Source: Saccostrea echinata (Eukaryota). From it: 64,000 bases of DNA. Shown piece by piece: positions 900 to 45,504 of this stretch. The notes beneath the pieces were generated by a model that worked only from the letters and a program-made list of their open reading frames with translations, made no database searches and was not told the DNA's origin. The stretch's first letter is position 1. Each line of letters opens with the position of its first letter. The stretch lies in NCBI RefSeq assembly GCF_033153115.1, contig NW_026889801.1, positions 3,844,001-3,908,000 on the forward strand, written 5' to 3'. A program made the translations under genes and the position numbers.

Positions 900-1063
900 A
901 TTCCGATAGATTTTGTAGTTCTACAAAACACCCAGGAAAAAGAGACGCAATGTTGTACAGCACCATTGTCCTCTGTACGATAGCAGTCTTCCAGTTTATA
1001 TGTTATATTTATCTTTCATTTTTCTACAAAAACAGACTGCATCTGGTTTGTTGTACACTGTAA
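900..1063 (+). CDS. Terminal transmembrane exon of an upstream mini-EGF receptor paralogue (rest of gene left of window or degenerate)
   Basis: ttttgcag acceptor, phase 1. Reads (D)SDRFCSSTKHPGKRDAMLYSTIVLCTIAVFQFICYIYLSFFYKNRLHLVCCTL*: a ~25-aa hydrophobic span followed by basic residues, the same layout as the TM exon at 23324. Confidence 0.55.
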
Positions 1064-1433
1064 CCAAAATAATACAGAACTATACAGCAACTATGGATTC
1101 TTCATAGAAATAATTCTTTTTTTTTTCTCTCTGTATTTATTTTTATGGGTTGTTTTTTTTTTCTTTGAAAAAATGACAAGTTTTTATGTTCATTAAGATA
1201 TTTTCCTATAATTAGAATATATTTAAGTGGAGCATGTGTATAAATAAAATCTGATCAACAACAATCAAGTCTAAATTGAAATTTCGTGCTTCATGTTTCT
1301 CTTATTTCAAAGATTTCATCCGTTATTAGATGAATAAAATGCTTCAAACTGTGAGTGACTTCTTTTTTAAAAAAAATGTGATGATAGTATATCTCCATTC
1401 TTCGTTGATTTAATATAAACCTGCATGAATATT

Positions 1434-1467
<34 letters not shown>

Positions 1468-1916
1468 ATAAAAGCTAACGGTTAACAAGGAAAATATAAC
1501 AGTTAACATACCTTCCAGGAAACTACCTTAAAGTAAATCTTAAAAAAAGAGGGATTCAACCATTTCGGAAAAAAAGGTAAAGAAAGTCAAGACAAGTCTT
1601 TGAAAAAAAAATATATATCAAACAATACCCATTATGCTTAGTTTGAATCAACCCAGAGTGCAAATGTACTTTAAATCATTAATTAGACGACTTTTCGGCA
1701 ATTTATCAAATTGCAATTNNNNNNNNNNNNNNNNNNNNNNNNNNNNNNNNNNNNNNNNNNNNNNNNNNNNNNNNNNNNNNNNNNNNNNNNNNNNNNNNNN
1801 NNNNNNNNNNNNNNNNNNNNNNNNNNNNNNNNNNNNNNNNNNNNNNNNNNNNNNNNNNNNNNNNNNNNNNNNNNNNNNNNNNNNNNNNNNNNNNNNNNNN
1901 NNNNNNNNNNCTAACA

Positions 1917-2105
1917 ATTAGTATGAAAAACGTCAGTCTGCACATGACTTAATGATAGATTGTATTTGCTGAGAAGGTCATTGTATTGACCATAGAACTT
2001 ACGAAATGATGACTTTAAACGAGACTGTTGATATTCTTGTTTCATCAACTTGTTTGTCAATAACTTACTTCGTCAGAAATTGTTCTTACGTAGAGCATGT
2101 AACTC
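1917..2105 (-). mobile_element. Penelope-like retroelement 3' fragment
   Basis: Similar by eye to 14110-14300 (ctaacaattag..gaccatagaactt..aaacgagactgttgatat); abuts the N gap. Confidence 0.55.
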
Positions 2106-2259
2106 TCTTCATTTTTAATGTAAAATTTTATAAATTCTCTATACATGAGGATGTTTAATTTGCCTTATTTATTTTAATTTGGTGGCTCTTTAGGTATGAA
2201 AAGTAAAATTTGCACTTTCCCTGAGTCCCTTGAATCATAACTCTTACCAGGGCCATACT

Positions 2260-3090
2260 CACAGCTATATTAAGGACTCTCCTATATACTTCCGCCTATG
2301 CAGAGGTTTGGGAAGGCTATTATGACGTCACGTTGAAACAATACAAATGAATTTCGATGATTAAATACTATATATTCTTTTTAAAACATACAAAAATTCT
2401 TTCGTTTCTCATACATATTAAAAGATAAATGAACGTGCAACTTATCTTGCCAAAATAGCTCTTAGAGTATGTAGAATGAAAGCCAGCTTGATCTCGCTGT
2501 ACTTACTGAGATGACGTCATTTCTTAGTTTGACACGCAGTTTCTCTGTACTTGAGGCGTGGATCAAGCTATTATTGTAGTTTGTCAAAATAAAAATAAAT
2601 ACGATACAAGCTTAATTGGACCAAAATAAAGACATATTCTAGCATATATTAATCGACATTTTATTCTCAAACTAAATTGATAACGTGCAGACTTTATACA
2701 TGTATGTAGCCGTAGGGAGCACATTTGTTCAGTAACCTGCAAGAATGAGGGGTCCAACCCCTCGAAAATATCAAAAGTTCAACGATATCCGCTTCACTAT
2801 TCTGAATTTTTAAACATGTGTAACTATTATTAACTATTATTCCTACTATTCTGAAAAGTGCTGGGGGCTGGTTGTGCAATGTTTATTTATTCTGTAATGT
2901 AACATTATTCCAGTGCGTGTTACATCTATGTCTGGAGTTTATAGAAAGACGGCTAAATTTTACACAATTTTCGAGCATGAGGAAGTTGCTCCCAACACTT
3001 TTCATGTTAGGAAATTTGTCTCAAACAAAAGTAAGCAATTTAAAGTAAGCATTTCGTAAATTTTACAGTCGTTTAATGACCTTAATTAAC
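2260..3090 (+). mobile_element. Non-autonomous TIR element, CACAGC-terminus family (right end approximate)
   Basis: Starts cacagctatattaagg, like cgcagctctgttaagg at 28410. Contains the core tgacgtca..ttgacacgcag..gaggcgtggatcaa and is colinear with 21020-21700. Confidence 0.6.
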
Positions 3091-4579: not shown

Positions 4580-4662
4580 ATGGACTTTATCTTGTATTGT
4601 TGTTTATGTTCAGTTTTTGCATTGATAATTCATTTAGTTGTCTGTAATCAGCAAAGCATAAG
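4580..4662 (+). CDS. Mini-EGF receptor copy A, exon 1 (signal peptide)
   Basis: ATG MDFILYCCLCSVFALIIHLVVCNQQSI, then ag|gtaact donor, phase 2. Confidence 0.7.
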
Positions 4663-4746: not shown

Positions 4747-4799
4747 AGGTCGAACAGATTGTTGTATTGAGTGGAATGAAGTACTCAACATATGCACCG
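4747..4799 (+). CDS. Copy A exon 2 (short Cys-rich, EMI-like CC..W..C)
   Basis: ttatag| (R)GRTDCCIEWNEVLNICT |gtaagt. Phase 2 to 1, compatible with both flanking exons. Confidence 0.75.
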
Positions 4800-6536: not shown

Positions 6537-6662
6537 ATTGTGAGACTGGATTTTTTGGTGACCATTGTCATTTACCGTGTCGATATCCAGGCTTTGGAGA
6601 AAGTTGTCAGAAGGAATGTGACTGCGAGGAACAGTATTGTCATCATGTTCAGGGTTGTACAG
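6537..6662 (+). CDS. Copy A exon 3 (MEGF10/ced-1-type EGF module)
   Basis: tttcag| (D)CETGFFGDHCHLPCRYPGFGESCQKECDCEEQYCHHVQGCT |gtatac, phase 1-1. Confidence 0.85.
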
Positions 6663-7144: not shown

Positions 7145-7225
7145 ATCCCTATGCTATATGCACCACAACAATGGTATCAAATAATATTTCATACACAACA
7201 ACATCGATGGATGGAACTCTCGAAG
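7145..7225 (+). CDS. Copy A exon 4 (Ser/Thr-rich stalk)
   Basis: ttttccag| (D)PYAICTTTMVSNNISYTTTSMDGTLE |gtaatt, phase 1-1. Confidence 0.7.
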
Positions 7226-8655
7226 GTAATTTCATAAATATACTTTTTGAATGTTCAAATAATATTAGTATCATGGATAAATTATATGTTTAGTTTGAAA
7301 AATTATGTATGAATAGAAACCTCCTACTGGAAAATTTTTGATGGGAAAGAAGGGTGTTTCCTCTGTCAAGCTCCAAGATCAATTTTGTTGAATATCTGTA
7401 AAGTTAGATAATATTTCCCAATCAAAGAACGGCAAAATACGTAGCTGAATTTAACAAAATACATATAGTGTGAGAGTTTAATCTACATGTAGTTTATGTT
7501 TAAATCACGTGCCTCTGTAAAACCTGGTTCTTGCAAAGAGAGACAGAGAGAGAGAGAAAGAGAGAGACACACAGAGAGAGGAACAGACAGATAGTCAGAC
7601 AGACGGACAGACAAACAAAGGTCTAGTGAGATAATAAAATCTACTGGATAAATTATGTAATGGTGTTGCTAGTTGTTTAATACCAACAAATCATATGAAA
7701 TATTGGTGCATACCGTTGTCGTTGAACATGTACGAATTCAAATGTTTCTTGTAAATGATATTGGGTAGACTACATGGTTAACGTTCGATGAGAGTGTCGC
7801 ATTCCCTGCTTTACGGAACAATGTATTCTTTATATGCCAAAACTGAGGGAAATATCAGTTTCCTTAATGCAGACGATAAAATCTATAAAAAAAGGTATGT
7901 GTCTGAATGGCTATTTTGCTTTCATTGATCATTTTGATATTTCATTTATTTCTTATTTACTATATTTTATTGCTTTTGAAATATATTTCATAATTACCCG
8001 AAGCAGTGAGAGAAATTCAATTTATATTCTTATTCTTTACTCTAGTTTTTTAAGTTTAAAGTAATAGACTGGTGTCACAGTTTCATTTCTGATATCACGT
8101 TTGTAGGAATAATTTTGTTATGTGTATTCACATGCACAAATAACCTACTTTTAATCACTACATGTACAAGTTATTGAATTACAAATGTTTAATCACTTCA
8201 TGTACAATTTAATGCATATACAGAAGAAATTATAATATAACAACTAACAATATATTATGTATTTTTGATATGCTTTTATCCCTTTGTGAAAAGTATATAG
8301 TAATACACGCACGTACATGCAAATGACTGTTTATGGTCGTCTTTACCTTTAAGTATTGAATGCTCCGTCATAATTTAAAATGTTTAATCTACAATGTATA
8401 TGGTGACGTAAAATTATATGTAATTCAAAAATACTCCTTACTGCATATTTGACCTTTAAATATACTTACTGTGTTTATATTTTTAAAAGGGTGTGTAAAT
8501 GTATATTCATATTCATTAAATGCAAATTTCAGTTTTTAGTTAATCTTGTCAGTTCAGGGGTATAACAGAGTATGCATTGTTGTCTTACTTTTCTATACTT
8601 GTCGGTTTAAATAAACATAAACTGTTCAAAGGAAATACCAATTTCATATTTTCGT

Positions 8656-8954
8656 GTCGCCCGCGTGGCGCAGTGATTAGAGCGTTTGCTCTAGAGTCGA
8701 GGAGTAAGGAGTTGATCCTTACGTCGCGGGTTCGAATCCCACTGTGGGACGGTGAGACCGGTCCTTCGGATGAGACCATATAAACCGAGGTTCCTCGCAG
8801 TAGGTGCTGGCACGAAAAAGATCCCTCATTGCTCAATGGCCCTAAGTGCCGATTATAGGTCAGAATTTGCAGCTCTCCACCGGCAAGTTGCGGCGTCTCC
8901 ATATAAGTGAAAAATTCTCGAGAGGGACGTTAAACAACAATAAAATAAACAAAA
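8656..8954 (+). mobile_element. tRNA-derived SINE
   Basis: A box tggcgcagtga, B box gttcgaatcc, A-rich tail, 11-bp TSD catattttcgt (8645-8655 / 8955-8965). Confidence 0.9.
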
Positions 8955-10109
8955 CATATTTTCGTATGATTAAGTTAACATGTTTTTAATCTAAGTTATT
9001 TGTCTGCACTTCCTGAAATTAAGACTACTGAAAGTACTCGTTATTACAACATAGATAGCATTATTTGTATATTAAAGAAAAAAATCTTGTATACATATCT
9101 AATGTCCTACATTGTACTGTTCCCGATTAGCGCCAATACATTTAAATACTGTAGTCAAAAATTGGATATAAAAAAGTCATCAACAAGCATAGGTAAATAA
9201 TTGAAGGACCATTAATCAAAAGAAGTTTGACGGAAACTTCTCACCATCCAATCTAATGATAAAACAGAATTTCCAACATTATCAATGCTCAAACACTCTC
9301 ATTAAAAAAATATCATGTACACTTCGTCATAATGTTATTCATTACATGTTTCACAATGATAATTTCTTTCCAACGAACAGCACTGTAAACATTGTATTGA
9401 TTAATCCTTGATTGATTTGAAGAAAAAACACCATCGTATTTTTTTTATTTTTTGGTCCTATTATGGTATAGATACATTGTTAATATTTAAAAATTGTATG
9501 CCTCTGTTGAGAAATACTATGAATATGTGAAAATACTTCTGGTAAAAGTTTTAGTGTTATGAATCTTAAATACGTATTATTTCACACGCCCCATGTTGTC
9601 TTTCCAACCCAAGAATGGCAAGAAAATTAACTAAAATTCATCTTTCTTTTTTTTTTTTAGTTTGCTAATCGTAATGTTTTATATGTTTAACACAATTGGT
9701 ATCTTATTTTTAATGCTACATGATTAACAAGTCAATTCATAAATAGAGAAAAAAATGACTTTTGCTATTCGTGTACAAATCATATAATGCATGTCTATTA
9801 TTCTGTCATAAAATGTTATCTCTCTTTGCATCTGAATTGGATAACAGAGCTGATTAAAACAATGCTAAACATTCTACATTTTAATTGTTATTTAATTGTA
9901 CAGAATCGCCTGTGTGTGAAATTTATAATCGAGTTACTAATGAAATCTTCAGATTATCTGGATTTATTTGGAGTTATTTTCTACGGATCTTATTTTTTAA
10001 AGCAGAAACACTTACACTTTAACAGTATTTTAGCTTTCATATTACATTCTTTTCAGAATGTAATATACACTGGAAGCTGTAAGACACACAAGAGTATATT
10101 AATTTGACT

Positions 10110-10156
<47 letters not shown>

Positions 10157-10174
10157 TTTTCACCTGAAATGTAG

Positions 10175-10405
10175 CTGAAATTGTTTTTGCAAATCGAAAG
10201 AAAGGGCATTCAGCCTTTTGACACAGAGAAGTCTGATTCAGATATCACCCTTGAGAATCTGTATAGTGATAACTCCCATATCAGACACACTGATAGGTTT
10301 AGTAACACAAATGCCAGTTCAGGCTATCGGTATAGATGCCACCCATCATTAACAGGACAGGTATGCAGAAACCCTGAGCAGAAAAATATTGATGAAAATG
10401 AATGA
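10175..10405 (+). CDS. Possible terminal cytoplasmic exon of copy A
   Basis: Follows a long poly-T tract and gtag. Hydrophilic reading frame with Tyr motifs (ENLYSD, SGYRY). The link to upstream exons is not established. Confidence 0.3.
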   Translation: MKLFLQIERKGIQPFDTEKSDSDITLENLYSDNSHIRHTDRFSNTNASSGYRYRCHPSLTGQVCRNPEQKNIDENE

Positions 10406-11045: not shown

Positions 11046-13715
11046 ACCCAACGGGGAAAAATGCTGTGTAGGATTTGATTGGAATACAACGCAAAAGGAA
11101 TGCGTCGTTGAGTTTTTGTGTCGCCTGCAGAGTAGAACGATACTTGGGGATCACTTTATCCGTTGTCTGTCTGTCTGTCGTTTTGTCTGTCCGACTGTCC
11201 GTCTGTCACACCTTATATCTTAAGAACTGTAAGGGGTACGGATTTTATATTTTGCATATCAATTGCATGACACTATGGCTTTTATAAATTAGCATGGTTA
11301 CCAACCTTGTGATCCATGACCTTGACCTTTGATCAACTTTTCAAAGAGGTAAGTATATGCTATATATGTTATAAAACATTATGAAAAATACCAGCGTTGT
11401 AATCCACTTGACCTTGAGCGTTGACCCACTTTGCTAAAAATACCTGGAGAGTATAATATATCTTTTGTAATTTGAGAGGCAGGGTTATAAAAATAAGTAT
11501 TTATACATGTTCATGAGCTCATGATTCTGTACGTTGAAACCGTATGATAATCTTACCGCAAGCTTCCATTGAAATGCCATGAAAATGCAATGGCATCCGT
11601 ACTCCACAATGGATCCTGTAGACTGACAATTATAGTAAAGACAGACTGAAATCTCTTTCGGAGATTTATTGAAAACGTGTATGAATAAAATGGTAGATAA
11701 TTATTTCAAATAATTTCAATATAATCATTATTCTGTGGTTGGGGAACTATACTTTCTTTGATTGACAGATTCTATCGCAGTCTTATAATATCTTAGAATG
11801 TTTTATTTTTTTCTTTGCATGCAATGAATGAATTTTATTATGTTAGTAGTAAAGAAATAGCTAACCATTCATAGAAATATTTACATCTTTAATGAAGCTA
11901 CAAAGCAGGCGACACATGGATTACTTGGAACTCTCTAGTTCTTTTTTTCTCTCTCTCAAATTAAAATTTCATTAAAAATTCAAAATAAAAAACAAAATAA
12001 AATAAAAACGCAGCTATGTCAAGGCTTCCCAAACCTTAGAAATACAAAATATTGCATTGCGAGGTCGGTTGTAATTATAATTTGTAATTTATGTGCTTAA
12101 GTATAGCCACTTTATATAGGGGGTTCTCTCGGCTTCATATTAACATATTCAATACGATAGAAATATGAAGATAACGAACAGTATTCAATCTCGAAAGTCC
12201 AATAAAACGATACAAATTTGAAGCAGAGCAAACACGAACCTCAAAATTTAGAGGTGGGATCAGGTGCCATGGAGGAGTGAGCATTCCCTGCCGACCGGTC
12301 ACACCCGCCGTGTGCTCCTTGTCATGATCGGGCAGTAACTGAGAAATCCGTAGACAGTTCAGTGTATAAATAATGATATCATTTGACTTCTTTGATCATT
12401 TGACGGTCATTTATATTCTCTTTATTGAAGTGTTTGATATTAATCGCTTCAGCAGATTAAAACAATTATTATTAATTTTTGGCATAAGCTTGCCGTATCC
12501 TTTTGTACCCGAAAAGCGATGGGGAAAGGTAATAGTATTACTTGGGTAAAAGATATTTCATGAGACGTTCTAGATTTCCGGCACATTTGATGATATTTTC
12601 TACTTTATATCATAGCCATCACACGTTTTTCCCCAGCACGATTTAGGTTGAGGACAAACCTTTCCTACTGATTTCCACAAAAGATCTCAAGTTAATCTTC
12701 AGTAATCGCTTGCGCCAGACCTTTTATACATATATAATTAATTCTACCTTTAACCATTGTATAAAACAGAGTAAATATCAAAAGTATATTTTTCTTAAGA
12801 ATTCCGAACATGCTGAATTTCATTCAAGGGTACAGTAATTGAGTGATGTATTTTGAAATATTCGGACATTTAAGATTTAAAAATAGAATTAAGACACGTG
12901 AATTTTGTAATGACGTTTTGATATATCATAGGCAGTTTTAAATAAGGTGTTATGTTTATGCCATGCTCCCCGTCATTACAGCTCAAGTTTACAGTGGCTT
13001 GACGTCATTTCCATTACGACGTCATATATTGGTAGTTCAGAAAAGTGAATGCACAGAGTGCTCTGTGATACTCAATAAGAAACCTTAACCCACCTGCGAA
13101 AATAACAAATTAAAATATACATGAAACGTTTGTCCATTTCTTTGTAGAATCTCAGGCTGGATTTTTTTCGGATCGGATTGCAGTTTTTTTGTGTGATCCG
13201 CCTCGTTATGGTTTGCACTGTAGCTCAACATGCAACTGTACGAATAAATGTCACCACGTGTACGACTGTACAAGATACCCATCTAATAGTCATAATAATA
13301 GTACTCCAATACTTATTGACATCACTATAAATAACTAATACATATGATCCTTTCAGTGAAAAAAATACCATCCAACAGCCCAAAAAGTACACAGCCAACG
13401 GCTGTTTCCGATTACGCTTTTTCAGGTACTGTTTCAAAGGCGATTAATACAGTTTTTTACCTAGTTATTAAAACTATTTCTTTTTTTTTCTATGGATAAC
13501 AATAATGTCTTACGCACACATATTTAATAAAAGGTTTTATACTTTCACGGAGAAGATTGCAGAAACTACCAACGCTTTTTACATGGATGATAAAAGGCAT
13601 GAGAACGAATTATCGAGGACTTTGATCTTTGGTATTGCTTGTTTTGCAGATGTAGCAGTAATATTACTTATTTACATATGTACTTTTTTTCCAAAAATCA
13701 CATTTTATTGTTCGA
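11046..13715 (+). pseudogene. Mini-EGF receptor copy B (pseudogene; closest to copy C)
   Basis: Exon remnants: 11046-11107 PNGEKCCVGFDWNTTQKECV (donor gt>tt); 13148-13285 ESQAGFF..CDPPRYGLHCSSTCNCTNKCHHVYDC (first Cys lost, poly-T slips, donor gt>at); 13551-13715 ..RHENELSRTLIFGIACFADVAVILLIYICTF (acceptor cag>cgg). Confidence 0.8.
11113..11940 (+). mobile_element. Helentron-associated non-autonomous element (HINE/DINE-like)
   Basis: Perfect 12-bp subterminal IR tgtgtcgcctgc (11117) / gcaggcgacaca (11905), a (ctgt/ccgt)n microsatellite after the 5' IR, T-rich ends. Inserted about 5 bp after copy B exon 2. Confidence 0.75.
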
Positions 13716-13959
13716 GTAAGTTCAAATAATCCAGGCATTCAAGAATGGAGACATTTTTAGCTACTACAGAAGAGAAGCGTTATGAATATTTCAATAAAAT
13801 ACCTTCATTAATATTTTAAATGCAAGTGTTCTATTTTCTTCTGGCATATATTACTAAACTAAATACGTCAGAGGATGTGTCAAAATAGAAACACAATTAA
13901 AAGAAACCAGTTCCTTTGCTAGTCTCTAGTAGGTAAGGTTTCTCCTGTTTCGACGTGTG

Positions 13960-15530: not shown

Positions 15531-17428
15531 AGGTTCTAATGAACAGCTTTTAAATAGTACATCAGAAAGAGGGATCTCATTTTTGGGGAAATGCAAGACA
15601 CTGTGAAATGTTAGCGGAGTACTCTCTCTAATTTTCATTCCTTGTAAATACTGATTTTATTTCACATTAGTTTTACCAAAAATAGACTATAGAGGGAATT
15701 CGAAATAAAATGCAGGGCTAACGGTAGATATGACAGGTCGACAGGGGATGCTTACCTCGCCTAGGTTAATGATCCCACCTCCGTTTTTGCCCTGTTCACG
15801 ATTTTTTGTTCACTGGATTTATGAGATTTAATAACTGTTCGTCATCTTCTCCTTTTACATTGCAAAGATAAGTCACTAGCATTATGCAGGCTGTCAGAAC
15901 AATCATAAAATAAAGAGAAAATACGAAGCAAAGTATGTTCATGAAGATTAATGAATAGCTTAATATAGATTTAGAAATTAACTTTCATTGCATGTACACG
16001 CTTTATATGTATATGATTAAAAATAAGATTTTCTTCACATTTCAACATTGAATTAGCAGTTCTATTATCCAAACAGGAAGTGTATGTAAGGAAGTGATAT
16101 GATTCCAAATAGGGGGAGAGTTAAGTTTAACTTTAATTAGGTCACACAGTTGTAATATTATACTCAATATATGTTATTGTAAAACGCAAAAATACCGTAT
16201 ATGCTCGTATGCAAATCGGTTCGCTGATGAGTCGGAAATTATTTTGGAAGAATCTGCCATAGACTAGCATATAATTCGATCTTTTTTGTCCAGAATAAGT
16301 TGCAAATGTCATATTCATATTCTATTTTAATTAAATGTTTTTCAAAGAATGGTTTTTTGGTATGGCATCTTTTTTTCTCAACAAATCAAACAGCAACGCT
16401 TTTTGAACAAAATATACATTTTGTTTATGTTTTATTGTTGGAGAGTTATGTCCTTTGTCTTGTATATTTTACATGTAAAATAGTTCTAGTATTTTACTAC
16501 ATTGTATGTACCTTGTAGTTTAATACACCTACCAAGCACCAGTCTCTTCCAACTTTAAAGAAATATTTGTACTTTTTATATTCATTTATGATTTGGAAAT
16601 TAATAATTACTGAAGTCTATAAATACATGTAATCTACTTGATTATTTATGATAAAAATACTATCAAGCTATATGTATTATTAATGTAACAATACATTTGA
16701 GTCATTAATAATTACGGATTTTTAATGTCCTAGAAACAGATTTCATAATTATAATTCTTATTTACAGCCACTAATCTGTATATATAATTGTGCATTGCCT
16801 TAGAAAAAGAAACAAAGTCATATTGTACATATAAAAAGGAAAAAGAAACAATGCCATATTGTACATCGTTTTTGGATTGTTGGCAGTCGTGCTGTTTACA
16901 GCCCGTCTTATTCTTTTCTTTGTTTATAGTTCTTGAGAGTTATGAATAATGTATAAAATGGAATTGTTTTTGAACTCAAAAATTGGCCATGGACAATTGT
17001 TAACTATGCTTTAATAGATCACCGTGTTGGTATTTATGTACTTATCTTTTATTTAAACAGAGTGTATCATATACATATATTTTTAACCTGTTGAATTTCT
17101 GGCAAAAAAAGGACTACTTTGATTAATTTGACTAGAAAATAAATGATATCAGGTTCAAAGTTTATGATACAGAATATCAAAAACAATAAAATGTTCGAAT
17201 GCAAAATGTTTTTAACTATTCCAGGAACCAAAGGGTGTTGTTTTAACCCTTGGCCAGGATCACTATCGTTCTTTAGTTAATATTTATTTAAAGTCAGAAC
17301 TTGTATTAGACAATTCGGTGCATTTATCATAAGATGTTGAAAGGATTTGATAGATGCTCTGCATTCTTATCTTTCATAATCTACGAAGGAGAAATTGTGC
17401 ATTCTGCAAATGTCGCTAAGAGTAAGCA

Positions 17429-17432
<4 letters not shown>

Positions 17433-17483: not shown

Positions 17484-17484
<1 letters not shown>

Positions 17485-17855: not shown

Positions 17856-17935
17856 ATGGTGTTTGTGTGTTCTATGTATTCTCTGTGCATTTTGTCTCTT
17901 TTGTTTGCATCTTGCATTCCAAAACTAAATGACGG
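17856..17935 (+). CDS. Mini-EGF receptor copy C, exon 1 (signal peptide)
   Basis: MVFVCSMYSLCILSLLFASCIPKLND gg|gtaagc, phase 2. Confidence 0.75.
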
Positions 17936-19984: not shown

Positions 19985-20046
19985 CCACTGTAACCATGGA
20001 TGCTGTCTCGGATTCGTTTGGAATAGAACGCTAAATAAATGTGTCG
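19985..20046 (+). CDS. Copy C exon 2 (EMI-like CCxGxxW..C)
   Basis: ttttag| (G)HCNHGCCLGFVWNRTLNKCV |gtgtgt, phase 2 to 1. Confidence 0.8.
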
Positions 20047-20148: not shown

Positions 20149-20286
20149 AATGTAAGCCTGGTTTTATTGGACTAAATTGCAGTACTTCTTGTCCGACGTA
20201 TTATTATGGTTTGAACTGTGTATCAATCTGCAATTGTACCAAAGACGAATGTCATCATGAGTACGGATGTAAAAGTTATTCATCCG
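20149..20286 (+). CDS. Copy C exon 3 (EGF module)
   Basis: ttgtag| (E)[45 protein letters not shown] |gtagat, phase 1-1. Confidence 0.85.
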
Positions 20287-23323: not shown

Positions 23324-23499
23324 ATAAGACAACAGAAGCTACCAGCAGTCGTTATGTTGATGAACAAAGGCATAAGAACGAAATTGGACCCTCGAGGACT
23401 TTGATTTTTGGCATTGCTAGTTTTTCAGTTTTGGCGGCAATATTAATCGTTGCTTATATGTGGACTTTTACCCCCAGAGCTCGTTGTGTGTTCGAGTAA
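23324..23499 (+). CDS. Copy C exon 4 (transmembrane; ends at TAA or splices at ga|gtaag)
   Basis: aaacag| (D)KTTEATSSRYVDEQRHKNEIGPSRTLIFGIASFSVLAAILIVAYMWTFTPRARCVFE*. Completes an in-phase ~150-aa type I membrane protein. Confidence 0.8.
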
Positions 23500-25903: not shown

Positions 25904-25943
<40 letters not shown>

Positions 25944-30671: not shown

Positions 30672-30729
30672 CTATAGAATTGTAAAATTGAGGCAGAAGT
30701 ACATTTCCAATATTTAACATAATATAGGC

Positions 30730-33559: not shown

Positions 33560-33790
33560 TCGGATCTAAGTGAAAACGGATTTTGTGGCCTGATGGGAGT
33601 CACCTTTTACAAGATTTCCCAAGTCACAAAGCGTTGACACGATAAAAAAAACCTTCACTGCAACGTTCGTTAGCACCGGTGCATAGGTCAAAATTTGTTG
33701 CATTTCTACTACAGCAAGTGATGTCTCGAAACCAAGTGAACAATTCTGGAATGAGACATTAAACAACATACAATCAGTCAAACATCCATT
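33560..33790 (+). mobile_element. Old degenerate SINE remnant
   Basis: The 3' part gtgatgtctc..aagtgaacaattctggaatgagacattaaacaacatacaatc resembles the tail of the SINE at 8656. Confidence 0.45.
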
Positions 33791-36046: not shown

Positions 36047-37986
36047 GAATTCCCCCCACTAACAAAAATCTTGTCCCCAAGATTTGGTTTACATATTATT
36101 AAAGGATTTTTACGTAATATCTCTATATTTTCAGATGACTTCAACACACACAAAAAAATACAATATAAAATTAAACATGCATAAGAAGAAAATATTCACA
36201 CACAATACGTTTATATAGTACGAAAAAAATTACAATATATATCTATACAAAATTCACATATACATCAAGATCGAATTGTGAACAATTGCCTGGGCATTTA
36301 CCTGGGTGGAGTCGGCAAAACTCCTTAGAATAGTTAACAATACATGTACTCTGCAGGGGAAAATGGCAAACCAGAAACAATCACAAATTAAAACCTTTCA
36401 AGTTCAATAAGTACACTATTCGCTTAACCCAGAATAAAAAGTTACCACAAAATATCATTGTTGATGGATTAACACCTTTTGTTTTTCTCACAATAGAAAA
36501 AAATAAGTTTGTCACTGTCTCGCAAGGTATGCACTCTTTTTCTCAATAAAACACTTCAGACATATTTTTGCATGGGATTTAAAAACATTGTTAGTGTACA
36601 TAAACATATGGAATCAATATTCATTTCAAACAACATCTGAAAACAATGTCAATCTTTAAACATAAGAAAACAATAAATTGCAGAAGACCAATTTGAGGTA
36701 ACAAAAAAATTCAAAAAGCGTATAATATCTTATTAAACATTTATCTTCAAAAATTTACACAAGCATTATATCAAAATAAAAAAAATTGTTATCAACAATA
36801 AGAAAAAAAAAATTAACAATCAATACCACTGGGCATTAACGAAAAATAGTACGTACGATGCTCGAATAAATAGCTACTATTTTAAAGAAAGTAATATCAT
36901 TTGTATTGACTCTTTTCCCCAAAATTTTAAAAATTGTTTATTTCCCTGTGTTCTCTAAAAAACAGAAAAAAACTTTGATAGAAACGTTTCAAAAGAAAAA
37001 TTTCAAATTCTCCATTTTTTTTTTAAAGAATTACTCTGTCAGCAGAGAAAATTCCTACCAAATTGTGTACTGTAATTTACAAGCTGTTGTTCGTAGCATA
37101 AAATTGTTAAGAAATGATTAGAGAGTCCCAAACTATGTGATGAGTTTATTTAAAAATTAAGGTGTTCATGTGTATACGTTGTAATGTGTACTTCGTTGTC
37201 AGCTTTGAGTGGGTATTATATTAATGTGCTTACACGATGTATCTTCCATAAATTTTGAGTCATTTTTTTCATGCACTATGTTAGTTCAGAAAATTTATTG
37301 AAGTAACTGTTACTTTGTTAATAACAAACACATGCAAAAAACAAATAGTAATACATGTATATGTAACCAGTGCAACCGTAAAATTATCACATTTTTCTCA
37401 CTCATTTTTTTTTTTTCTATTTAACTATCCGGTCATCGACATGTGTAACAAGAGAGGAAGAATTTTTCCATTCATTGCAGAATTTAATGGTAACTTAGTT
37501 TATGGAACCAGAGCATAAAAAAAATCCTTTGTTGATATATAACGTATTTCCTATTTAATAGTAATCACTTAGATTTCACTTATATGAAGTGTTTAGATCT
37601 ATAAAGGAGGAATGATTCTCGCAGCAAATTAGGAAGGGCAAAGAATTTCGCTTAGAACTCCCATATAACAGATGAAATGAAAGAAATGGAAAGAGCTGGA
37701 CGTCCTGATAGAAGATCTATATGAATGATATGCATGAAAGAGATGAAAAAAAAGAATTGGACAATCCGACAGAAGAAAGAAATGGATGACATATATATAT
37801 AGAAGTCAAAGACAAAATCTTATCCATCCCATTACGATACCTTCCTTTCTTTAACCTATTTTCTTAAGACATTTTTTCTTTGTCTTCAATTGTACTTTGA
37901 TTTCGAAACTCTGTATTAGACCAATCAGTTGATCTTTGTTACCTGTATTATTTGATATGCTCTCTCTCTCTCTCTCTCTCTTTAAT

Positions 37987-40900
37987 TTAGAATCTCCTTT
38001 TCCTTCGCCTTGTTGACGAATGATACAATTGTTTTAACAACTGAGAAATATTATTCGAAGGTTCCCAAGTAGGCGGTGACCCATCTGCCCATTTAACTAT
38101 ATAATATCGTTTATTATTCATCCATTTTGATTTCAACAATTTTTCTAACGTGTGCCATTCATCTTTTTGTGTCTGCTGTGTCTGTGCATTCTGATTATTT
38201 ACATTATCTCGTTTTTGAAGATTGTGCGCTTGCGGCGGCGGACGATAATCTCTCGGGTCTTTATACAATCGCAATCTATTTGCATGCACAGACGCTTTTA
38301 GTTCCACATGGTCATTAGACCTTCTTAACCTAAATGAATGGTTCGGGTTAACCTTAATTATATAATAAGGACCTTCCCATTTAGGCTCTAATTTGTGTTT
38401 TCTGCCTGGAGTTCGTTTCATGACTTTTAACAACACTTCATCTCTTATTTTGAATTGTGGTTCTTTTGTTTTCTTATCATATCGCTCTTTGTTTTTCTCT
38501 TGAACCTTACTCACATTTTTCTTTGCAATTTCGTGTACTATTTTCACTTTGTTAATCAAATCATCAATGTACTCTTTTGGTGCTTTTTCCAGAACTTCCC
38601 TGGGGATTAATGAAATATCAATGGGTAAAGGCATCTCTTTCCCAAACAACATGTAATAGGGGGAATACCCTGTGGACTGAGTTGACGGACTCATTCTGAA
38701 TGCCATCATAACACTGGGTAAAACATCTTCCCATGCATCCTGATTTTTCTGACAATACGCTCTGAGTGATTGAGCTAGTGTAGAATTGATTCGTTCGCAT
38801 GCCACATTACTCTGTGGATGATACGAACTAGTGACGTGCCGAGTCACTTGAAATATTTTACACAAAGCTTGGACTACTTTTGACATGAAATTTTGTCCCC
38901 TATCGCTGACCAACGTACGTGGAGCCCCGTATCTTGTAAATATTTCTTTGTACAACAAATGTGCAACCCCTGTTGCCTCTTGTGTTTTCATTGGTAGTGC
39001 CTCTGACCAATGTGACAATGAGTCTGTAACCAACAAAATATACTGATACCCTTGTTTTGTTTTTGGCAAACCTCCCAATATATCCATATGCCATCGGGCA
39101 AATGTCCCTTCTACTGGTAATGGGTGCAATGGTGCGGTCCTACTTGCTGTATCTCGTTTTACCCTTTGACAAACATCACATGACGTAACATAGTCATATA
39201 CATTTTGATACATCCCTGGCCAAAAGTATTTTTGCTTAATTGCCAAATATGTTCTGTGTACTCCCAAGTGACAACCACCTGCTAATGAATCATGATAAGA
39301 TTTCAAAACATCATCTCTCAAAGATTGGGGACAAGCCATTTGTTTGATAACTGCTTCCGGGTTCGATTTATTCTTTGACCTTGGTTGAAAAATATGAAAC
39401 AAAATGTCATGTACCAATTCACATTGATTTGCTTCATACGGAATCGCTTTTGCCCTCTTTGGGTCATTCGGAAGTGTGCCATCTTGCAAATATTTATAGA
39501 TATGTTTAAAATAAGGACAATTTTGTTGTTCTTGTTGAATTTGTTCAATTTGATTTTTATTTTGAGTTTCCTTTTCCCTTTCCGATAGAGTGTTATTTAT
39601 TTCCAAGATATGTTGTTGATTATCATTTGGAAATAAAAGTGTCACCTCTGTTATTTCATTCGGAATTACGTCATTATTTGCTTCTGAAGTGTTTGTTTCT
39701 TTTGAATAAGGCCTTCTAGACAATGCATCACAATTTTGATGTTTTATTCCTGGTCTATGTTTTACTTCAAAGGAATATTCTTGCAATTTTAATGCCCATC
39801 TTATTAATCTCGCATTAGTGTGTTTGATTGTCTTTAACCAAGTTAATGCTTTATGGTCGGTATAGACAAGAAATTTGTTGTTTACCAAGTATACACGCAA
39901 ATGCGCTATTGCTGACACTAACGCGAGCATTTCTTGTTCGGTTACGGAATATGCTTTTTCATATTTATTTAGTGCTCTACCTCCGTATGCAATTACATGT
40001 TCTTTATTATTATCTCCTATTTGAGACAACACATATCCGATAGCCATTCCTGACGCGTCACATGACAAAATAAATGGCTTTTGAAAATCTGGATACGCTA
40101 AAACTGGTGTTGTTGTTAAAGCTTGTTTAAGTGTATCAAAAGCAATTTGACAATCTTTGGTCCACTTAAAAGGAGTATCTTTTGTTAATAACCTGTTTGA
40201 AGGTAGTGCAATTTTTGAATACCCTCTTACAAATTTCCGATAATAATTTGCCAATCCCAGAAAACTGCGGATATCATGCTGATTTTGTGGCAATGGAAAT
40301 GATTGAACTGCGTCAACTTTTGAAGGATCAACTTTTATTCCCTCTTTAGATATTATATGACCTAGATATGTGACCTCTGGTTTTGCAAATGAACACTTTT
40401 TTGGTTTTAAAGTCAAGTTTGCTTGTCTTAAACGATCAAAAACCAAATTAAGATGTTTCAAATGATTTTCAAAAGTATCTGACCATACAATGATGTCATC
40501 GATGTAAACCAAACAGTGTTTCCACGTAAGACCTTTTAGAACCATATTCATGAGCATTTGAAAAGTTGCTGGGGCATTAACAAGACCAAAAGGCATTCTT
40601 TTGAATTGATATAAATTATCATGCGTAATGAACGCAGTTTTATGTTTTGTTTTTTCATCAAGTGCGACTTGCCAATAGCCAGAAGCCAAATCCAAAGTAG
40701 AAAATATTTTTGCTTTGTTTTGTCCAATTGCATCAAAAACATCTTCTAGCCGCACTGTTGGAAATGTTTGAACAGGGGTCACTGCGTTTAATTTTCGATA
40801 ATCTATTGCAAATCTGTATTCATTGTTTGGCTTTTTGACTAAGACCACTGGTGACGCGTATGATGAAGTACTTTCTTCAATTATGTCATATTTGAGCATT

Positions 40901-42882
40901 TCATTTATTTGTTTTTCAATTTCTTTCTTAGCCTTTGGAGACGTACGATATGGTTGTGATTTGATTGGTTTATCATCTTCAGTGATAATTGAATGACGAT
41001 AAACATTACACTTGCCCAATTCTGATAAATTGTTTGCAAAGACATCACTGTTTTTGTTTATAAATATTTGAAAAATTTCTTTTTCTTTCTCAGATAGAAT
41101 GGAAGATGATGAATCAAGAGGTACCGATTTGTATTTTGAGGTCACCTTTGCGTTTTGTTGATCCAAAGAAAATATATTCGCGTCATCAATGGGATTCACC
41201 GATGCTATGATTGTTCCAGCCGGAATATTTATCTGTTCATTAGAAGTATTAGTGACCTGCATAAACACTTGTCTAGGTTTATTTATAACCACACATTTTG
41301 CAACCGCGAGACCCGTTCGTTTATTAGATTTTGGTTCTAATAGCACCGTGGCTTTGTTTTTAGTGCGCGATAATCTAACAGGAATGTTTATCATAGAGTC
41401 TGGCGGAATGACCATTGATCTGACAGCTCTTGCCAACCCTGTCTTACAATTGATAACATTGATATGAGCTGAAAATTCTTGCAAGTGCAAAGTTCTTGAG
41501 CCCCAATCTAAACATGCTTTTTGTTGTTTCATGAAATCAGTTCCCAGAATTACCGGATGGCACAATGCCTCAATGATATGAAAAGTATGTTTTAAATTGA
41601 GACCTCCAATTTTGATTTGTAACTCAACTTTTCCATTTACTGGATGTGATGTTCCACCTGCCCCAGTTATATCTAAAATTTCTGAAACTTTTATTTGCTT
41701 TTTCTGAGTTTTCAATTTTCTCAAAACATGTGAATTGATAGCAGAAATAGAGGATCCGGTATCTAAAAGAGCATTGAATTTGGAATGCTGAATGTAAACA
41801 GGGACATAACATTTATCAGCAAAACTGACCAAAGCATCCACTGCTTCACTATTGTGATTGATTCTAGCGTTACAAGTAACTCTTTCATTTGTTTGCTTGT
41901 TTTGCAATTTGTTAGAGACAGTCTTGAATTCTTGTTTGCGTATCCGTGTCTGTCTACATGCTCTTGAAAAATGACCTATTCTCTGACAATTGTAGCACAC
42001 AGCATTCTTAGCTGGACACGTGGTCCTATTCCTGCACATTTTCAAACATTTACATGTGGGAAAACTCATGCGTTGCAGTGGTAAATTAGTATGATTGTTA
42101 GTAGACCTTCTCTGCACATTAGTAAACATATTTTGTCTTGGAACCCGATATCTTTGTGGTTGCCGAGTTTGTGAGGCATATTGTCTATTGTATCGCGTGC
42201 GCTGTTTCTGCATTATTGTGTCTTTTTGCGGCATGGGTGGAAGTGTAGGCACGAATTGTTGTTGGTGTTGCGCATAATGTGATTGTGCGTAATATTGCTG
42301 TGGTAAATTTTGATTGACAGCATTGATTTCTGGTTTAAGAATTTTATCTTGTATATTGTTGATTTCTGCCAATAAATTTTCGTAAGTTTCCAAAGTATCT
42401 AATTGAGATGGTTGAGATTTCTCTGCCAACAAAGCAATTTGCCTTACTTTTTCCATTGTTTTAGGATTTTGTGTTACTACAAAAGTTTTGTTATTATTCC
42501 TTAACCCGTTCATAGCAACAGATAATAAGACATTTTCCGGAATAGTTTTGATTGAAGCAGTTTTGATAAGTCTTGTTAAAAAATCTTCTACTGATTCTGT
42601 AACATTTTGTTTCATTTGCAACACTGACAAATCTAAAAAATTGCCAAACTCTGTGAATCTTTCCTGAAACAATGTTAAGGTATCTGAATTTGACTTTTGT
42701 TCAAAAGGTAGAGAATCATACCATACCTTTGCATGCCCTTGTAAATGAAAGGGAAACGCATCAACAATCTTGCTATCAGTTAAATCATGAAATCTTGCCC
42801 ATTGAAAAAAATTTGTCAACCATATAACAACATTTTGTGTACCGTCACCTTTAAATTTTTCTAGTTTAATAGAAGTGGACAT
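37987..42882 (-). CDS. Gag-Pol polyprotein: gag (CCHC knuckle) - protease - RT - RNase H - integrase - chromo-like domain
   Basis: CYNCQRIGHFSRAC; ALLDTGS; LDLASGYWQ, MPFGL, YIDD; CDASG, TDHKAL; integrase HHCC and SDRGQNF..ERIN; WEGPY; C-terminal EKLLKSKWMNNKRYYIVKWADGSPPTWEP. Confidence 0.98.
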   Translation of the reverse strand: MSTSIKLEKFKGDGTQNVVIWLTNFFQWARFHDLTDSKIVDAFPFHLQGHAKVWYDSLPFEQKSNSDTLTLFQERFTEFGNFLDLSVLQMKQNVTESVEDFLTRLIKTASIKTIPENVLLSVAMNGLRNNNKTFVVTQNPKTMEKVRQIALLAEKSQPSQLDTLETYENLLAEINNIQDKILKPEINAVNQNLPQQYYAQSHYAQHQQQFVPTLPPMPQKDTIMQKQRTRYNRQYASQTRQPQRYRVPRQNMFTNVQRRSTNNHTNLPLQRMSFPTCKCLKMCRNRTTCPAKNAVCYNCQRIGHFSRACRQTRIRKQEFKTVSNKLQNKQTNERVTCNARINHNSEAVDALVSFADKCYVPVYIQHSKFNALLDTGSSISAINSHVLRKLKTQKKQIKVSEILDITGAGGTSHPVNGKVELQIKIGGLNLKHTFHIIEALCHPVILGTDFMKQQKACLDWGSRTLHLQEFSAHINVINCKTGLARAVRSMVIPPDSMINIPVRLSRTKNKATVLLEPKSNKRTGLAVAKCVVINKPRQVFMQVTNTSNEQINIPAGTIIASVNPIDDANIFSLDQQNAKVTSKYKSVPLDSSSSILSEKEKEIFQIFINKNSDVFANNLSELGKCNVYRHSIITEDDKPIKSQPYRTSPKAKKEIEKQINEMLKYDIIEESTSSYASPVVLVKKPNNEYRFAIDYRKLNAVTPVQTFPTVRLEDVFDAIGQNKAKIFSTLDLASGYWQVALDEKTKHKTAFITHDNLYQFKRMPFGLVNAPATFQMLMNMVLKGLTWKHCLVYIDDIIVWSDTFENHLKHLNLVFDRLRQANLTLKPKKCSFAKPEVTYLGHIISKEGIKVDPSKVDAVQSFPLPQNQHDIRSFLGLANYYRKFVRGYSKIALPSNRLLTKDTPFKWTKDCQIAFDTLKQALTTTPVLAYPDFQKPFILSCDASGMAIGYVLSQIGDNNKEHVIAYGGRALNKYEKAYSVTEQEMLALVSAIAHLRVYLVNNKFLVYTDHKALTWLKTIKHTNARLIRWALKLQEYSFEVKHRPGIKHQNCDALSRRPYSKETNTSEANNDVIPNEITEVTLLFPNDNQQHILEINNTLSEREKETQNKNQIEQIQQEQQNCPYFKHIYKYLQDGTLPNDPKRAKAIPYEANQCELVHDILFHIFQPRSKNKSNPEAVIKQMACPQSLRDDVLKSYHDSLAGGCHLGVHRTYLAIKQKYFWPGMYQNVYDYVTSCDVCQRVKRDTASRTAPLHPLPVEGTFARWHMDILGGLPKTKQGYQYILLVTDSLSHWSEALPMKTQEATGVAHLLYKEIFTRYGAPRTLVSDRGQNFMSKVVQALCKIFQVTRHVTSSYHPQSNVACERINSTLAQSLRAYCQKNQDAWEDVLPSVMMAFRMSPSTQSTGYSPYYMLFGKEMPLPIDISLIPREVLEKAPKEYIDDLINKVKIVHEIAKKNVSKVQEKNKERYDKKTKEPQFKIRDEVLLKVMKRTPGRKHKLEPKWEGPYYIIKVNPNHSFRLRRSNDHVELKASVHANRLRLYKDPRDYRPPPQAHNLQKRDNVNNQNAQTQQTQKDEWHTLEKLLKSKWMNNKRYYIVKWADGSPPTWEPSNNISQLLKQLYHSSTRRRKRRF

Positions 42883-43611
42883 TTTTGAAAAAAAAAATGA
42901 TGTCCTACCTGTCCTATCTTTATTTTATAAGTCTTGAAGCAAAAATATCCGTTCCTCAAAAGAAGAGTCACTTGCGTGTGTCGGACACCCCGCTCCAGCA
43001 CTGCACTATCGGAACTGTCCCAAAAGTTTAATAGTTCGTGTTCCTGGTTTCGAGAAGATTGGACGGTATCTGGAAACGCGCGACAAACATGGGAGCCCGC
43101 AACCTGCGAAACTGGCTTCTCTATCTCTACCTCTTGGTCCTGTCCAAGGTGTATCTGGTCCTCTTACCCCGGGTGTGTCTGGTTTTCTGGGAAAAGATTG
43201 TCGTCTGATGGCTCTGGTGTTTCGTAGGCAAGATTGGATTTAAGCTCTGATCCTCATCTTTGCGTAATTATATGTTCAATCAACGACTAAAATCCTGGCT
43301 CATTAAGCTTCGTGCGCCTCATAGAAATGCCTCGGGTTTCTCTGTTTGAAATAGACTTTCTTTGTAAATCGTGGACTTCCTGGTCCTGGTCAGGCATTGA
43401 TAAATCCTCGCTTATTCTCGTCTGCACTCGATTTATATGTTTGAGTCAAATATGAAATTTCAAAGTTCAATTCTCGTTGAATGAAAACTTCTGGGGAAAA
43501 TATGGCGTTAGTTCAATCAATCGTTGCAAATGTTTTATTCGCCTAAAGACACTGGCTTCCATGTAATTGTGACTCTCAACAGTCCCGTTTTTCCGAAACG
43601 TAATATCACAA

Positions 43612-43627
43612 CCCCATTTCTCCACCA
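43612..43627 (-). promoter_or_regulatory. Primer-binding site, probably tRNA-Ala
   Basis: TGGTGGAGA immediately inside the 5' LTR is complementary to a ..UCUCCACCA tRNA 3' end. Confidence 0.7.
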
Positions 43628-43628
43628 C

Positions 43629-44748
43629 TTTTCATATAAAAAAAATATGTTGTGGGTTGTGGGGGATTTTCGTTTATTTCGAATATATTGTTTTTGGTCT
43701 TGGAATTTCTCTCGTCACTGGATAAATTGATTATCAGCTCCGGGATCGTTGTGCGCTTTTTGCCTGTGAGAGGTTTTTAGACACAGGGGAACAATTCTTA
43801 CAATCCCCTGGTCTTGACCAGATTGACCCAAGTTAGTTGGGTTATTAATGGTCCTTTATTTCTCAAAAACGCTCCAGTTTGAATCTACTCTTCCTAGGAT
43901 ATGTTCCCTTCCTGTCCATAGCGCATCACAGGTTATGGGGAGTGGTCCTAGCTGTTACCCAACCTGTATAAATGCAACCAGAAAGAGACAAAATCCAGCA
44001 GACCACCCTTTATTAAATTAACACATACATTCTAATTATTTACAATTACTAAAGTTACACAATACACAATATGATAAACATTATAATAAATACGAAACAT
44101 TTATATCAGATTATAAAATATATTAACCTGTAAATACATTAAGCCATCTGAACATTTTAACCATCTTACAAAAATCGCACAAGTCTATAAAAATATCTTA
44201 CCTGTATAAATGTAACCAGAAAGAGACAAAATCCAGCAGACCACCGGCTGGATATGTCTCACTGCGCTACATTTATACCCCCGTACATGCCCTGCATATT
44301 TGAGTATTTCTTCAAAATTTGCACTAATGACTTTTAACTTTGCTCTGAATTTAACTTAATCTTATCCGACCTTAAACCCTCTTTTAATCCTTAATTGCAC
44401 CTTAACATTCTTGTTAAACTTTTTGCATAATCTTGACTTTTTATTTACTGTAGATAATTTATACAGATGCATGACCTCTGCTCCCTCGCATCAACCTCTT
44501 TGATTGGTTACACCCTTATTCTTGACCAAGCCAGCATCTTATAAACAAGTTCTTAATCTACAAACAAATAGCAAACCTCATGGAGCTTAATTATCAGCGG
44601 TGAAAAGTTCATCCTGTACTCCTGCCCAGCATCTGTTTTCTTCTATTTTTATCCTGCGCGATCGGCTAAACCTTAATACCTTTGCTACTTTACCCCCGAG
44701 ATTCATAAATTCCACAATTTTCTATTTTTATGCACTTTTTGTTATGAT
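43629..44748 (-). repeat. 5' LTR (CCAAT near 44505, TATA near 44275, AATAAA near 44010 on the - strand)
   Basis: Direct repeat of 34927-36046. The - strand reads aaccaatc ... gggtataaatg ... aataaa in the expected U3/R order. Confidence 0.95.
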
Positions 44749-45131
44749 AATATTAAAAATGTATCTGTAATTTGTAATGCCATATTAGATTTATGGAGAA
44801 ATATGAGTATACATATCTATAGAACAACTTCTAAAAATGGTTTTAATATTTATAATATAATTTATAATAAAATATCGCTCGGAGTTATAAGACCATATTG
44901 ATCAATCTGTGATGATTAAAAGTACCCTATTGAATATGTTTTTCTCTTTTTTGTGAAACTGTATTGTTCCAAATGAAGCCTGCTTTGTAATGGCTGTAAT
45001 GATAATTAATAATTATTGTAAAGTCGACAGGTTGATGTTGAATTATATCATTAAATTAATGAATAGCAGATAAGAAAAAAAAGACTTTCGTGTAATACTG
45101 CCTTAAGTCCTCTTACAAAAACTTATGCTTT

Positions 45132-45504
45132 GATGTAGATGTAGAGTGTTGTATTCATAACACGCGTCTTAGAAATATGCTCTTTTGCGAGGGGATGCTC
45201 CGCTTTGCGGTACTCCTGTTATTTATTGTTTTTTGCACAATATCCTCCTTGTCCAAGAATTCTTCTCTCTATTAGTGTATTCATAATATTGAAAAACGGA
45301 AACCACGACTGAAAATATTCTACATTACGTATTGATATTTTTTTTAAAATGACATTTTCCTTTAAAATTGCATTAAAGAATATTTTGGTACTGCGTTTGA
45401 ACTACCCTGTCGGTACCCATGTTTTCGGGAGAACTGTCAGTCTGCATGCACTTGTAAAATGAAATTCTGTCACCGTATAAAAGGATGTCAAAATATGACA
45501 TGTG
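45132..45504 (+). pseudogene. Mini-EGF receptor copy D (pseudogene; closest to copy A)
   Basis: 45367-45504 CIKEYFGTAFELPCRYPCFRENCQSACTCKMKFCHRIKGC aligns to copy A exon 3, with the acceptor lost, C>F and G>R. DVECCIHNTRLRNMLFCE near 45138 may be exon 2. Confidence 0.7.

Follow-up and report, generated by a model that had tools for sequence, protein, structure and literature searches.

We describe here a cluster of receptor-gene copies in a 64,000-nucleotide (nt) stretch of the Saccostrea echinata genome (contig NW_026889801.1, positions 3,844,001 to 3,908,000 of the forward strand; hereafter the window), which is AT-rich animal DNA with a GC content of 33% and 801 N across several gaps. The cluster is real: five copies (U, A, B, C and D) lie on the + strand within positions 900-45504, and one of them, copy C, is complete. 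The copies belong to a large family of short oyster proteins, which is annotated in databases but apparently undescribed as a family. The most interesting addition made here is a family-wide split, as judged from predicted proteins, between members with a single-tyrosine cytoplasmic tail and members with a motif-less tail.

When the window was searched in six frames with a profile built from 140 homolog modules, exactly four modules were recovered, all on the + strand, with matches at 6536 (E=2e-15), 20148 (E=1e-15), 45366 (E=1e-8) and 13189 (E=4e-8). Since the next best match had an E-value of 0.32, the module cluster is far beyond chance. A family-profile search also picked up three CC..W..C exons and the transmembrane (TM) exons of B and C, and gave a weak match to that of U. 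An earlier reading of this DNA from its sequence only had claimed at least five same-strand paralogues, which agrees with the five copies on the + strand and the four modules found by profile. In total, the 45 kb hold one intact copy (C), one doubtful copy (A) and three or four dead pieces, including a previously unlisted one (X). They form two old lineages, A/U/X/D and B/C, which are interleaved and of which C alone is complete. The exons, all on the + strand, are the following.

17856..17935, +: copy C exon 1 with the signal peptide; its phase-2 donor ranks at the 99.8th percentile of GT sites
19985..20046, +: copy C exon 2, C..CC..W..C unit (phases 2-1), putative remnant of an EMI C-terminus; family profile E=1.5e-5
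20149..20286, +: copy C exon 3, 8-Cys module (1-1); family profile E=1e-15
23324..23499, +: copy C exon 4, stalk, TM, tail of about 10 amino acids (aa) and TAA; the stop is overlapped by a donor-like site that follows 23495
4580..4662, +: copy A exon 1 with the signal peptide and first ectodomain Cys; its phase-2 donor ranks at the 98.8th percentile
4747..4799, +: copy A exon 2, CC..W..C unit (2-1); family profile E=0.25, weak alone
6537..6662, +: copy A exon 3, 8-Cys module (1-1); family profile E=2e-15
7145..7225, +: copy A exon 4, open stalk rich in Thr (1-1); no intact TM exon follows
900..1063, +: copy U, terminal exon with stalk and TM, phase-1 acceptor, open to its stop; the TM matches that of homolog P0116
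about 16794..16936, +: X, a U/A-type TM exon that is dead, without its acceptor and with a duplication carrying a stop
11046..11107, +: CC..W..C exon of copy B, with TT at the mutated donor; profile E=5e-4
13148..13285, +: module exon of copy B; frameshifts that compensate each other, loss of two Cys and of the donor
13357..13425, +: putative stalk exon of copy B, open (1-1) and rich in Ser/Thr/Pro, proposed solely from its splice sites
13551..13729, +: TM exon of copy B, with 70% identity to that of C; acceptor changed to GG
45367..45504, +: copy D, a module exon like that of A and dead; AA at the acceptor, 7/8 Cys

The exons of copy C, which span 5.6 kb, join in silico into an open frame of 151 aa with phases 2, 1 and 1, in line with the complete protein of about 150 aa proposed earlier. 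All six junctions that had been quoted for A and C have GT/AG ends. The predicted protein consists of a signal, the CC..W..C remnant, one 8-Cys module, a stalk, a TM segment and a tail of about 10 aa. Its hydrophobic segments at the N-terminus (KD19 2.14) and at the TM (KD19 2.52) give C a type-I single-pass topology. The ectodomain contains 12 Cys and three N-glycosylation sequons, while the TM segment holds no charged residue and the tail, if the stop is used, no Tyr motif. On a profile of 28 short-family members C and A reach E-values of 4e-30 and 1e-24, respectively, and both show the order signal, CC..W..C unit, 8-Cys module ending in GC and stalk. The closest relatives fetched are at most 58% (C) and 47% (A) identical over the ectodomain, and the best module identity for C is 60%. 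Word-index protein searches with the module and the TM exon of C returned no match, which is weak evidence. The genes had been called invisible, and this holds for the locus, where no close protein was found, but not for the family, which is annotated many times in RefSeq and UniRef.

Copy A is less clear. Its four exons are open and its donors rank at the 95th-99.9th percentile of GT sites, but a search of 7226-17800 found no TM-like stretch behind a phase-1 acceptor, and read-through of the last exon gives a product of 136 aa without a TM. The description of the copies as single-pass receptors therefore applies to C and is not shown for A. The first ectodomain Cys of A is located in exon 1 and not in exon 2, and the Cys spacing of the CC..W..C unit differs between A and C. 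The statement that cysteines are fixed while other residues diverge between these two copies holds for the module, in which 8/8 Cys and 7/32 other residues are identical (under the family mean of 33%). The proposed common exon and phase scheme could be verified in A and C and partly in B, whereas U consists of a TM exon only and D of a module only.

The upstream exons of U fall outside the window. None of 5000 shuffles matched the TM of P0116 as well as the TM of U did, and the TM exons of U and X were equalled by 4 of 5000 shuffles. X has lost its acceptor and carries a 36-nt internal duplication with an in-frame stop. Since P0116 joins a module near that of A (47%) to a U-type TM, X is probably the last exon of A, in which case B would be nested inside A. 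The module remnant of D is closest to A (46%). Neither a signal nor an EMI exon was found for D, the candidates at 34023 and 45140 being equalled by 7-29 of 290 random controls.

Copy B is close to C in its exons (67-73% identity) and in one intron piece, as 10745-10960 matches intron 1 of C. It is dead through four lesions, and no signal exon was found for it. For its putative stalk exon no counterpart was detected in C or A; in the comparison with the A stalk, 274 of 290 controls were as good. Both B and D had been regarded as dead, and splice-site lesions and lost Cys are found in each of them.

We next compared the copies at the codon level. Between B and C, 92 codons give a synonymous rate (dS) of 0.56, a nonsynonymous rate (dN) of 0.27 and a ratio of 0.49 (bootstrap 0.25-0.93), which is inflated because B is dead. 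For the non-Cys ectodomain the ratio is 0.50 (bootstrap 0.16-1.34), from one pair with one dead partner. The silent sites of A and C are saturated, so that these are old lineages and not young divergent duplicates, and their divergence reflects age as much as speed. The rapid diversification proposed earlier does not follow from these values.

The exon 3 module has eight Cys with fixed spacing and is not the canonical 6-Cys EGF that had been assumed in calling it one EGF exon. In laminin-type EGF numbering we take it to be the second half of one repeat and the first half of the next. In the window copies and in 10 whole family proteins the module stays below the cutoff of every Pfam EGF family. 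Pfam EMI matches neither the ~20-aa exon 2 nor the same 10 proteins; of that domain only the CC..W..C end is left. The best sequence match of the module in the PDB is human SCARF1 (phmmer E=2e-4), and long laminin-EGF/PEAR1L proteins are among its top matches. The predicted structure of P0148 (predicted local distance difference test, pLDDT, 90-96 over residues 21-90) superimposes on SCARF1 77-118 over 41 residues with a root-mean-square deviation of 1.7 and a Z-score of 3.2, and on Tie2 with a Z-score of 3.8. Tie2 and SCARF1 were also the top Foldseek rows, none of them at E<=0.001. The model of the C module alone was poor (pLDDT 53.5), and the wide fold search was dominated by the TM helix.

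The homologs P0020 and P0051 are long EMI and multi-EGF proteins with a CC.G..C motif whose terminal repeat is the family module. Their EMI-like N-terminus together with this terminal module suggests that the family arose by internal shortening of a Draper-type gene, which supports the earlier idea of a miniaturised MEGF10/Draper-derived family with, as found here, one to four modules per protein. A similar repeat ends the ectodomain of P0033, a receptor tyrosine phosphatase, and short members could also work beside such phosphatases.

A search with the C module yielded 538 cluster representatives at E<=0.001, and the best 150 of these and 15 added ones (165 in total) were analyzed. While 88/165 are not longer than 330 aa, 72/165 fit the short family by its pattern (an 8-Cys module that ends in GC and lacks the classical continuation), with one module in 32, two in 27, three in 9 and four in 4 members; 31 have the CC..W..C unit. 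Among 30 hand-picked short representatives, 25 could be assigned to named clusters, all from oysters (Ostreidae; Crassostrea/Magallana, Saccostrea or Ostrea). Their automatic names are MEGF6/10/11, ced-1, draper, SCARF1/2, PEAR1, angiopoietin-1 receptor-like or uncharacterized. The family features are shared by ESM Atlas clusters from molluscs with lengths of 161, 119 and 65 aa (scores 0.87-0.92). The layout of C recurs in P0148 (C. virginica XP_078324868.1, 171 aa), which has one module and a motif-less tail of 20 aa, and in P0171. In seven relatives (P0013, P0026, P0062, P0131, P0139, P0140 and P0146) the cassette of CC unit plus module appears to be repeated whole, apparently a second route to a longer ectodomain.

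In one cluster several M. gigas entries are nearly identical, which fits a recent duplication in another part of the family. Together with the mixture of intact and dead copies in the window, these paralogues support the birth-and-death evolution that had been suggested. Family proteins of 195-273 aa sit on assembled contigs of 1.0-1.7 kb; from a comparison with the 5.6-kb gene of C we infer that these proteins come from short, spliced mRNAs. In a tree of 65 rows 9/53 branches were supported; the window copies need three changes, and a single origin is possible. Module comparison did not show that a two-module ancestor gave rise to A through its second module and to C through its first: C was nearer to first modules in 14/18 cases (p=0.03, with rows that are not independent), while the counts were 8 vs 10 for A and 5 vs 10 for D. 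In our literature search the short architecture was nowhere described as a family; subscription journals, which hold much of oyster immunology, were mostly outside its coverage.

A TM segment after the last module was predicted in 23/72 short members; the other 49/72, which are fragments, truncated models or secreted forms, were left out of the tail counts. Fifteen tails have at least 22 aa, and 12 of them contain a YxxI/L/V motif, compared with 2.5 expected by shuffling. The remaining 8/23 tails are shorter than 22 aa and none of the eight has the motif. When five relatives of one subfamily were counted once, the motif was present in 8/11 tails vs 2.2 expected, a value reached in 0/10000 shuffles. 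Neither NPxY nor an ITAM (immunoreceptor tyrosine-based activation motif) was found in the 23 tails. A strict inhibitory motif (ITIM) occurs in 1/23 and a switch motif (ITSM) in 4/23. Going by these predicted tails, the family splits into single-YxxI/L/V tails and short motif-less tails, and C falls into the short class if its stop is used. ITIM-SHIP2 signalling has been reported for an oyster receptor (PMC11841013). P0044, P0162, P0163, P0165 and P0168 have a conserved Asp in the predicted TM (three also a Lys) and a Tyr-motif tail, and this subfamily could pair with a membrane adaptor. Among the within-cluster variants of P0050, ectodomain and tail vary alike by eye.

Regarding expression, the short member LOC111100153 is differentially expressed between circulating granulocytes and agranulocytes of C. 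virginica (PMC13070813 Table S5; baseMean 13, log2 fold change -2.06, adjusted P 4e-4). Two papers describe dozens of draper/MEGF-labelled transcripts in C. virginica agranulocytes (PMC13070813) and seven MEGF10-labelled transcripts that differ between Perkinsus-tolerant and sensitive families (PMC9892467).

The surroundings of the cluster contain two further genes or elements, both on the - strand.

56598-62130, -: C-type lectin gene in three exon pieces; last exon 56598-56828, Lectin_C E=1e-8
34915-44748, -: Ty3/Gypsy-type long terminal repeat (LTR) retrotransposon between C and D; repeats of ~1130 bp, 98.9% identity

The last exon of the lectin gene bears QPD and WDD motifs, further exon pieces lie near 61.1 and 62.1 kb, and N gaps adjoin two of the three pieces. 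An immune locus next to a lectin had been suspected, and the C-type lectin is indeed real. However, it is located 11 kb beyond the dead copy D on the opposite strand, and as a single neighbor it lends such a locus weak support. Both the immune locus and rapid diversification remain hypotheses. The LTR retrotransposon is apparently young, with one open frame of 1645 codons (42924-37990) for gag, protease, reverse transcriptase, RNase H and integrase and ~2 kb of non-coding DNA between the end of this frame and the repeat.

Several other repeats were noted. Two decayed regions on the - strand, 27300-30700 and 49200-52800, are DIRS/tyrosine-recombinase-like by eye and match each other at 60% over 290 bases. 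A dispersed repeat resembling a short interspersed nuclear element occurs at 8650-8956, 33616-33809, 48577-48959, 56991-57314 and 59002-59382, with 96% identity between the copy at 48.6 kb and that at 59.0 kb. An inverted pair (53461-54483/57467-58503; ~1 kb, 90% identity, 3 kb apart) encloses the last lectin exon. Tandem arrays with a unit of ~160-170 bp are found at 46121-47415 and 54664-55584 and resemble the Helitron or satellite-like repeats of bivalves. Another tandem repeat at 31710-32425 has a period near 260 bp (89% identity), and 32950-33240 (-) looks by eye like the remnant of an SGNH-hydrolase-type open reading frame, probably derived from a mobile element.

As to function, we lean somewhat towards the view that the family works as a variable surface-recognition scaffold. 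Internal shortening would have spared one end of the EMI domain, CCxG[F/Y/W]..C, together with the membrane-proximal 8-Cys repeat. Because the repeat exon is symmetric (phase 1-1), modules could be freely gained or lost, and one to four are seen. The 12-Cys ectodomain would be a small scaffold, held rigid by disulfides and carried on a Ser/Thr stalk, and its non-Cys surface may bind a ligand (a microbial surface, an opsonin or an altered cell) on haemocytes or epithelia. Long-tailed members may pass a signal to an SH2 protein by way of a single YxxI/L/V phosphotyrosine motif. C, provided that its stop is used, would bind without signalling, as a tether, co-receptor or competitor, and A would be secreted or dying. 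New copies would arise by tandem duplication and be inactivated through transposon insertion and the loss of splice sites. A more specific version, to which we give clearly less credence, is that of an oyster paired-receptor system on a non-immunoglobulin scaffold, made of many miniature receptors that vary in module number, in which Tyr-tailed members signal, tail-less or secreted siblings such as C and A are decoys or tuners, and individual-specific repertoires affect disease resistance. Tailed and tail-less classes are both seen among the predicted proteins, but some short tails may be truncated models, and the tree, with 9/53 branches supported, is too poorly resolved to reveal pairs.

A number of observations weigh against a recognition scaffold. 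The loci described here are known from genomic sequence alone, and the tail length of C is uncertain. Prediction may have cut short the tails of RefSeq models, and at least two short tails (P0074 and P0049) end in a read-through-like manner while their relatives continue. The structural matches of the model, although they agree with the sequence, are weak in absolute terms (best Z 3.8). No sign of positive selection was seen in the B/C and A/C comparisons, which have little power. Only 1/3 family LOC ids appeared in the haemocyte tables, which list differentially expressed genes only, and one protein id was also absent from them; the same four ids gave 0 matches in the supplements of PMC9892467. 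Labels such as 'MEGF10' in papers lump long and short proteins. NimA, a short Draper-like protein, shows that such a protein can serve in adhesion instead of scavenging (PMC13076899).

The alternative that C is an ordinary signalling member, which uses the overlapping donor and gains a longer tail from a downstream exon, is possible but not our expectation. The TAA of C overlaps CGA|GTAAGC, a donor-like site at the 97.9th percentile among the GT sites of the window, which outscores two of the donors that A and C use. B has the same 12 bases around this site, and the Tyr motif is present in most long-tailed members. However, the phase at this site differs between B and C, and a 12-base run is expected at 70% identity. 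None of 22 candidates for an in-phase tail exon in 23560-34900, an interval holding two N gaps, was convincing, and tails shorter than 22 aa are found in 8 of the 23 TM-bearing members. An AATAAA 183 nt past the stop also speaks against it, weakly, given a background of 1.5 per kb. Since the stop overlaps the donor-like site, a decoy role of C remains a hypothesis.

We consider it unlikely that the family consists of cell-adhesion or cell-sorting molecules (homophilic or allorecognition-like) instead of microbe sensors. According to PMC13076899, NimA (EMI, NIM and two EGF) adheres and is not phagocytic, and Eater and NimC1 likewise promote adhesion. The 23 tails also lack NPxY and ITAM, which engulfment receptors use (PMC8092387). 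On the other hand, adhesion by NimA requires a full EMI domain (PMC13076899), which is absent here, and high gene turnover would suit recognition better than structural adhesion. The MEGF10-labelled transcripts that vary with Perkinsus tolerance may point in the same direction, limited by the missing matches of the four family ids there.

Somewhat less likely again is simple decay of the cluster, with C unexpressed or dispensable and neutral turnover driven by a repeat-rich region. One of five copies is complete, transposon pieces occur throughout the region together with an intact LTR element, and no protein close to C was found. Yet C retains its 12 ectodomain Cys, its open frame and six canonical splice sites despite a dS of ~0.56 to B, and the B/C ratio below 1, with an upper bound of 0.93, indicates past purifying selection. 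Splicing of the exons into one long or chimeric multi-module transcript, for instance from A exons to the module and TM of C, is improbable: module, stalk and TM acceptors are all of phase 1, so that A-to-C splicing would be in frame, A is without its own TM exon and two-module relatives are common, but A and C have separate signal exons, C is complete alone, the splice sites of B and D are dead and family transcripts are short. We give almost no weight to C as a ligand of the growth-factor or Notch type (EGF/TGF-alpha or DSL-like) that is tethered to the membrane and released from its stalk by shedding: tethered EGF ligands share the layout of signal, one Cys module, stalk, TM and short tail, but the eight-Cys spacing is unlike 6-Cys EGF ligands, the DSL matches (C module 11.6 bits, E=0.35; P0034 16.9 bits, E=0.008) are far under the cutoff of 24.2 bits, and tethered ligands are few and conserved, in contrast to the large unstable family here.

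Oyster challenge and haemocyte studies repeatedly list 'MEGF10', 'draper' or 'ced-1' among differentially expressed genes and interpret them as engulfment receptors. At least some of the genes under these labels encode the short proteins described here, without the EMI domain or the NPxY/ITAM motifs needed for engulfment, and defining the short family would alter the interpretation of such hits. If the paired-receptor version is true, the family has been hidden in transcriptome papers under these three names. The split between Tyr-tailed and motif-less members offers a direct test of paired-receptor logic in a mollusc. The locus contributes one intact, apparently unannotated member (C) to the family.

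Among known proteins, the short oyster models XP_078324868.1, XP_019924780.1 and XP_052683160.1 have the same CC..W..C unit, 8-Cys module, stalk and TM, and carry automatic best-hit names (MEGF10/MEGF11/ced-1/draper/SCARF1/SCARF2/PEAR1-like or uncharacterized). Like MEGF10, Draper, CED-1 and PEAR1, the family is single-pass, with the CCxG..C motif, a related Cys-rich repeat and a Tyr motif in many tails. PMC8092387 states that Megf10, Draper and CED-1 rely on EMI, repeats, NPxY and ITAM or YxxL, the CED-1 tail having a single YxxL. The oyster family lacks a full EMI domain, has one to four repeats (one per window copy) and shows neither NPxY nor ITAM in 23/23 tails; it is also multi-copy and unstable, unlike these conserved receptors, and fails the defining tests for membership among them. 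SCARF1 resembles the module in sequence and predicted structure. It has a long tandem EGF ectodomain that binds modified low-density lipoprotein (LDL) in its mid-region and a large cytoplasmic part (PMC11563577), whereas C has no long EGF ectodomain, mid-region LDL site or large cytoplasmic part. The Nimrod family (NimA, NimC, CgNimC) comprises Draper-derived surface proteins of phagocytosis or adhesion, and oyster CgNimC binds lipopolysaccharide (PMC5484132). In comparison with Nimrod proteins, the module directly follows the CC unit, as judged by eye. The paired immune receptors KIR, LILR, Siglec and CD300 are clustered, evolve by birth and death and combine a common ectodomain of immunoglobulin folds with signalling and non-signalling tails. 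The oyster family differs from them in its Cys-rich module, in the uncharged TM of C and in the rarity of strict ITIM and of ITSM patterns, but it shares with them the clustering, the birth-and-death evolution, the shared ectodomain and, in the predicted proteins, the two kinds of tail.

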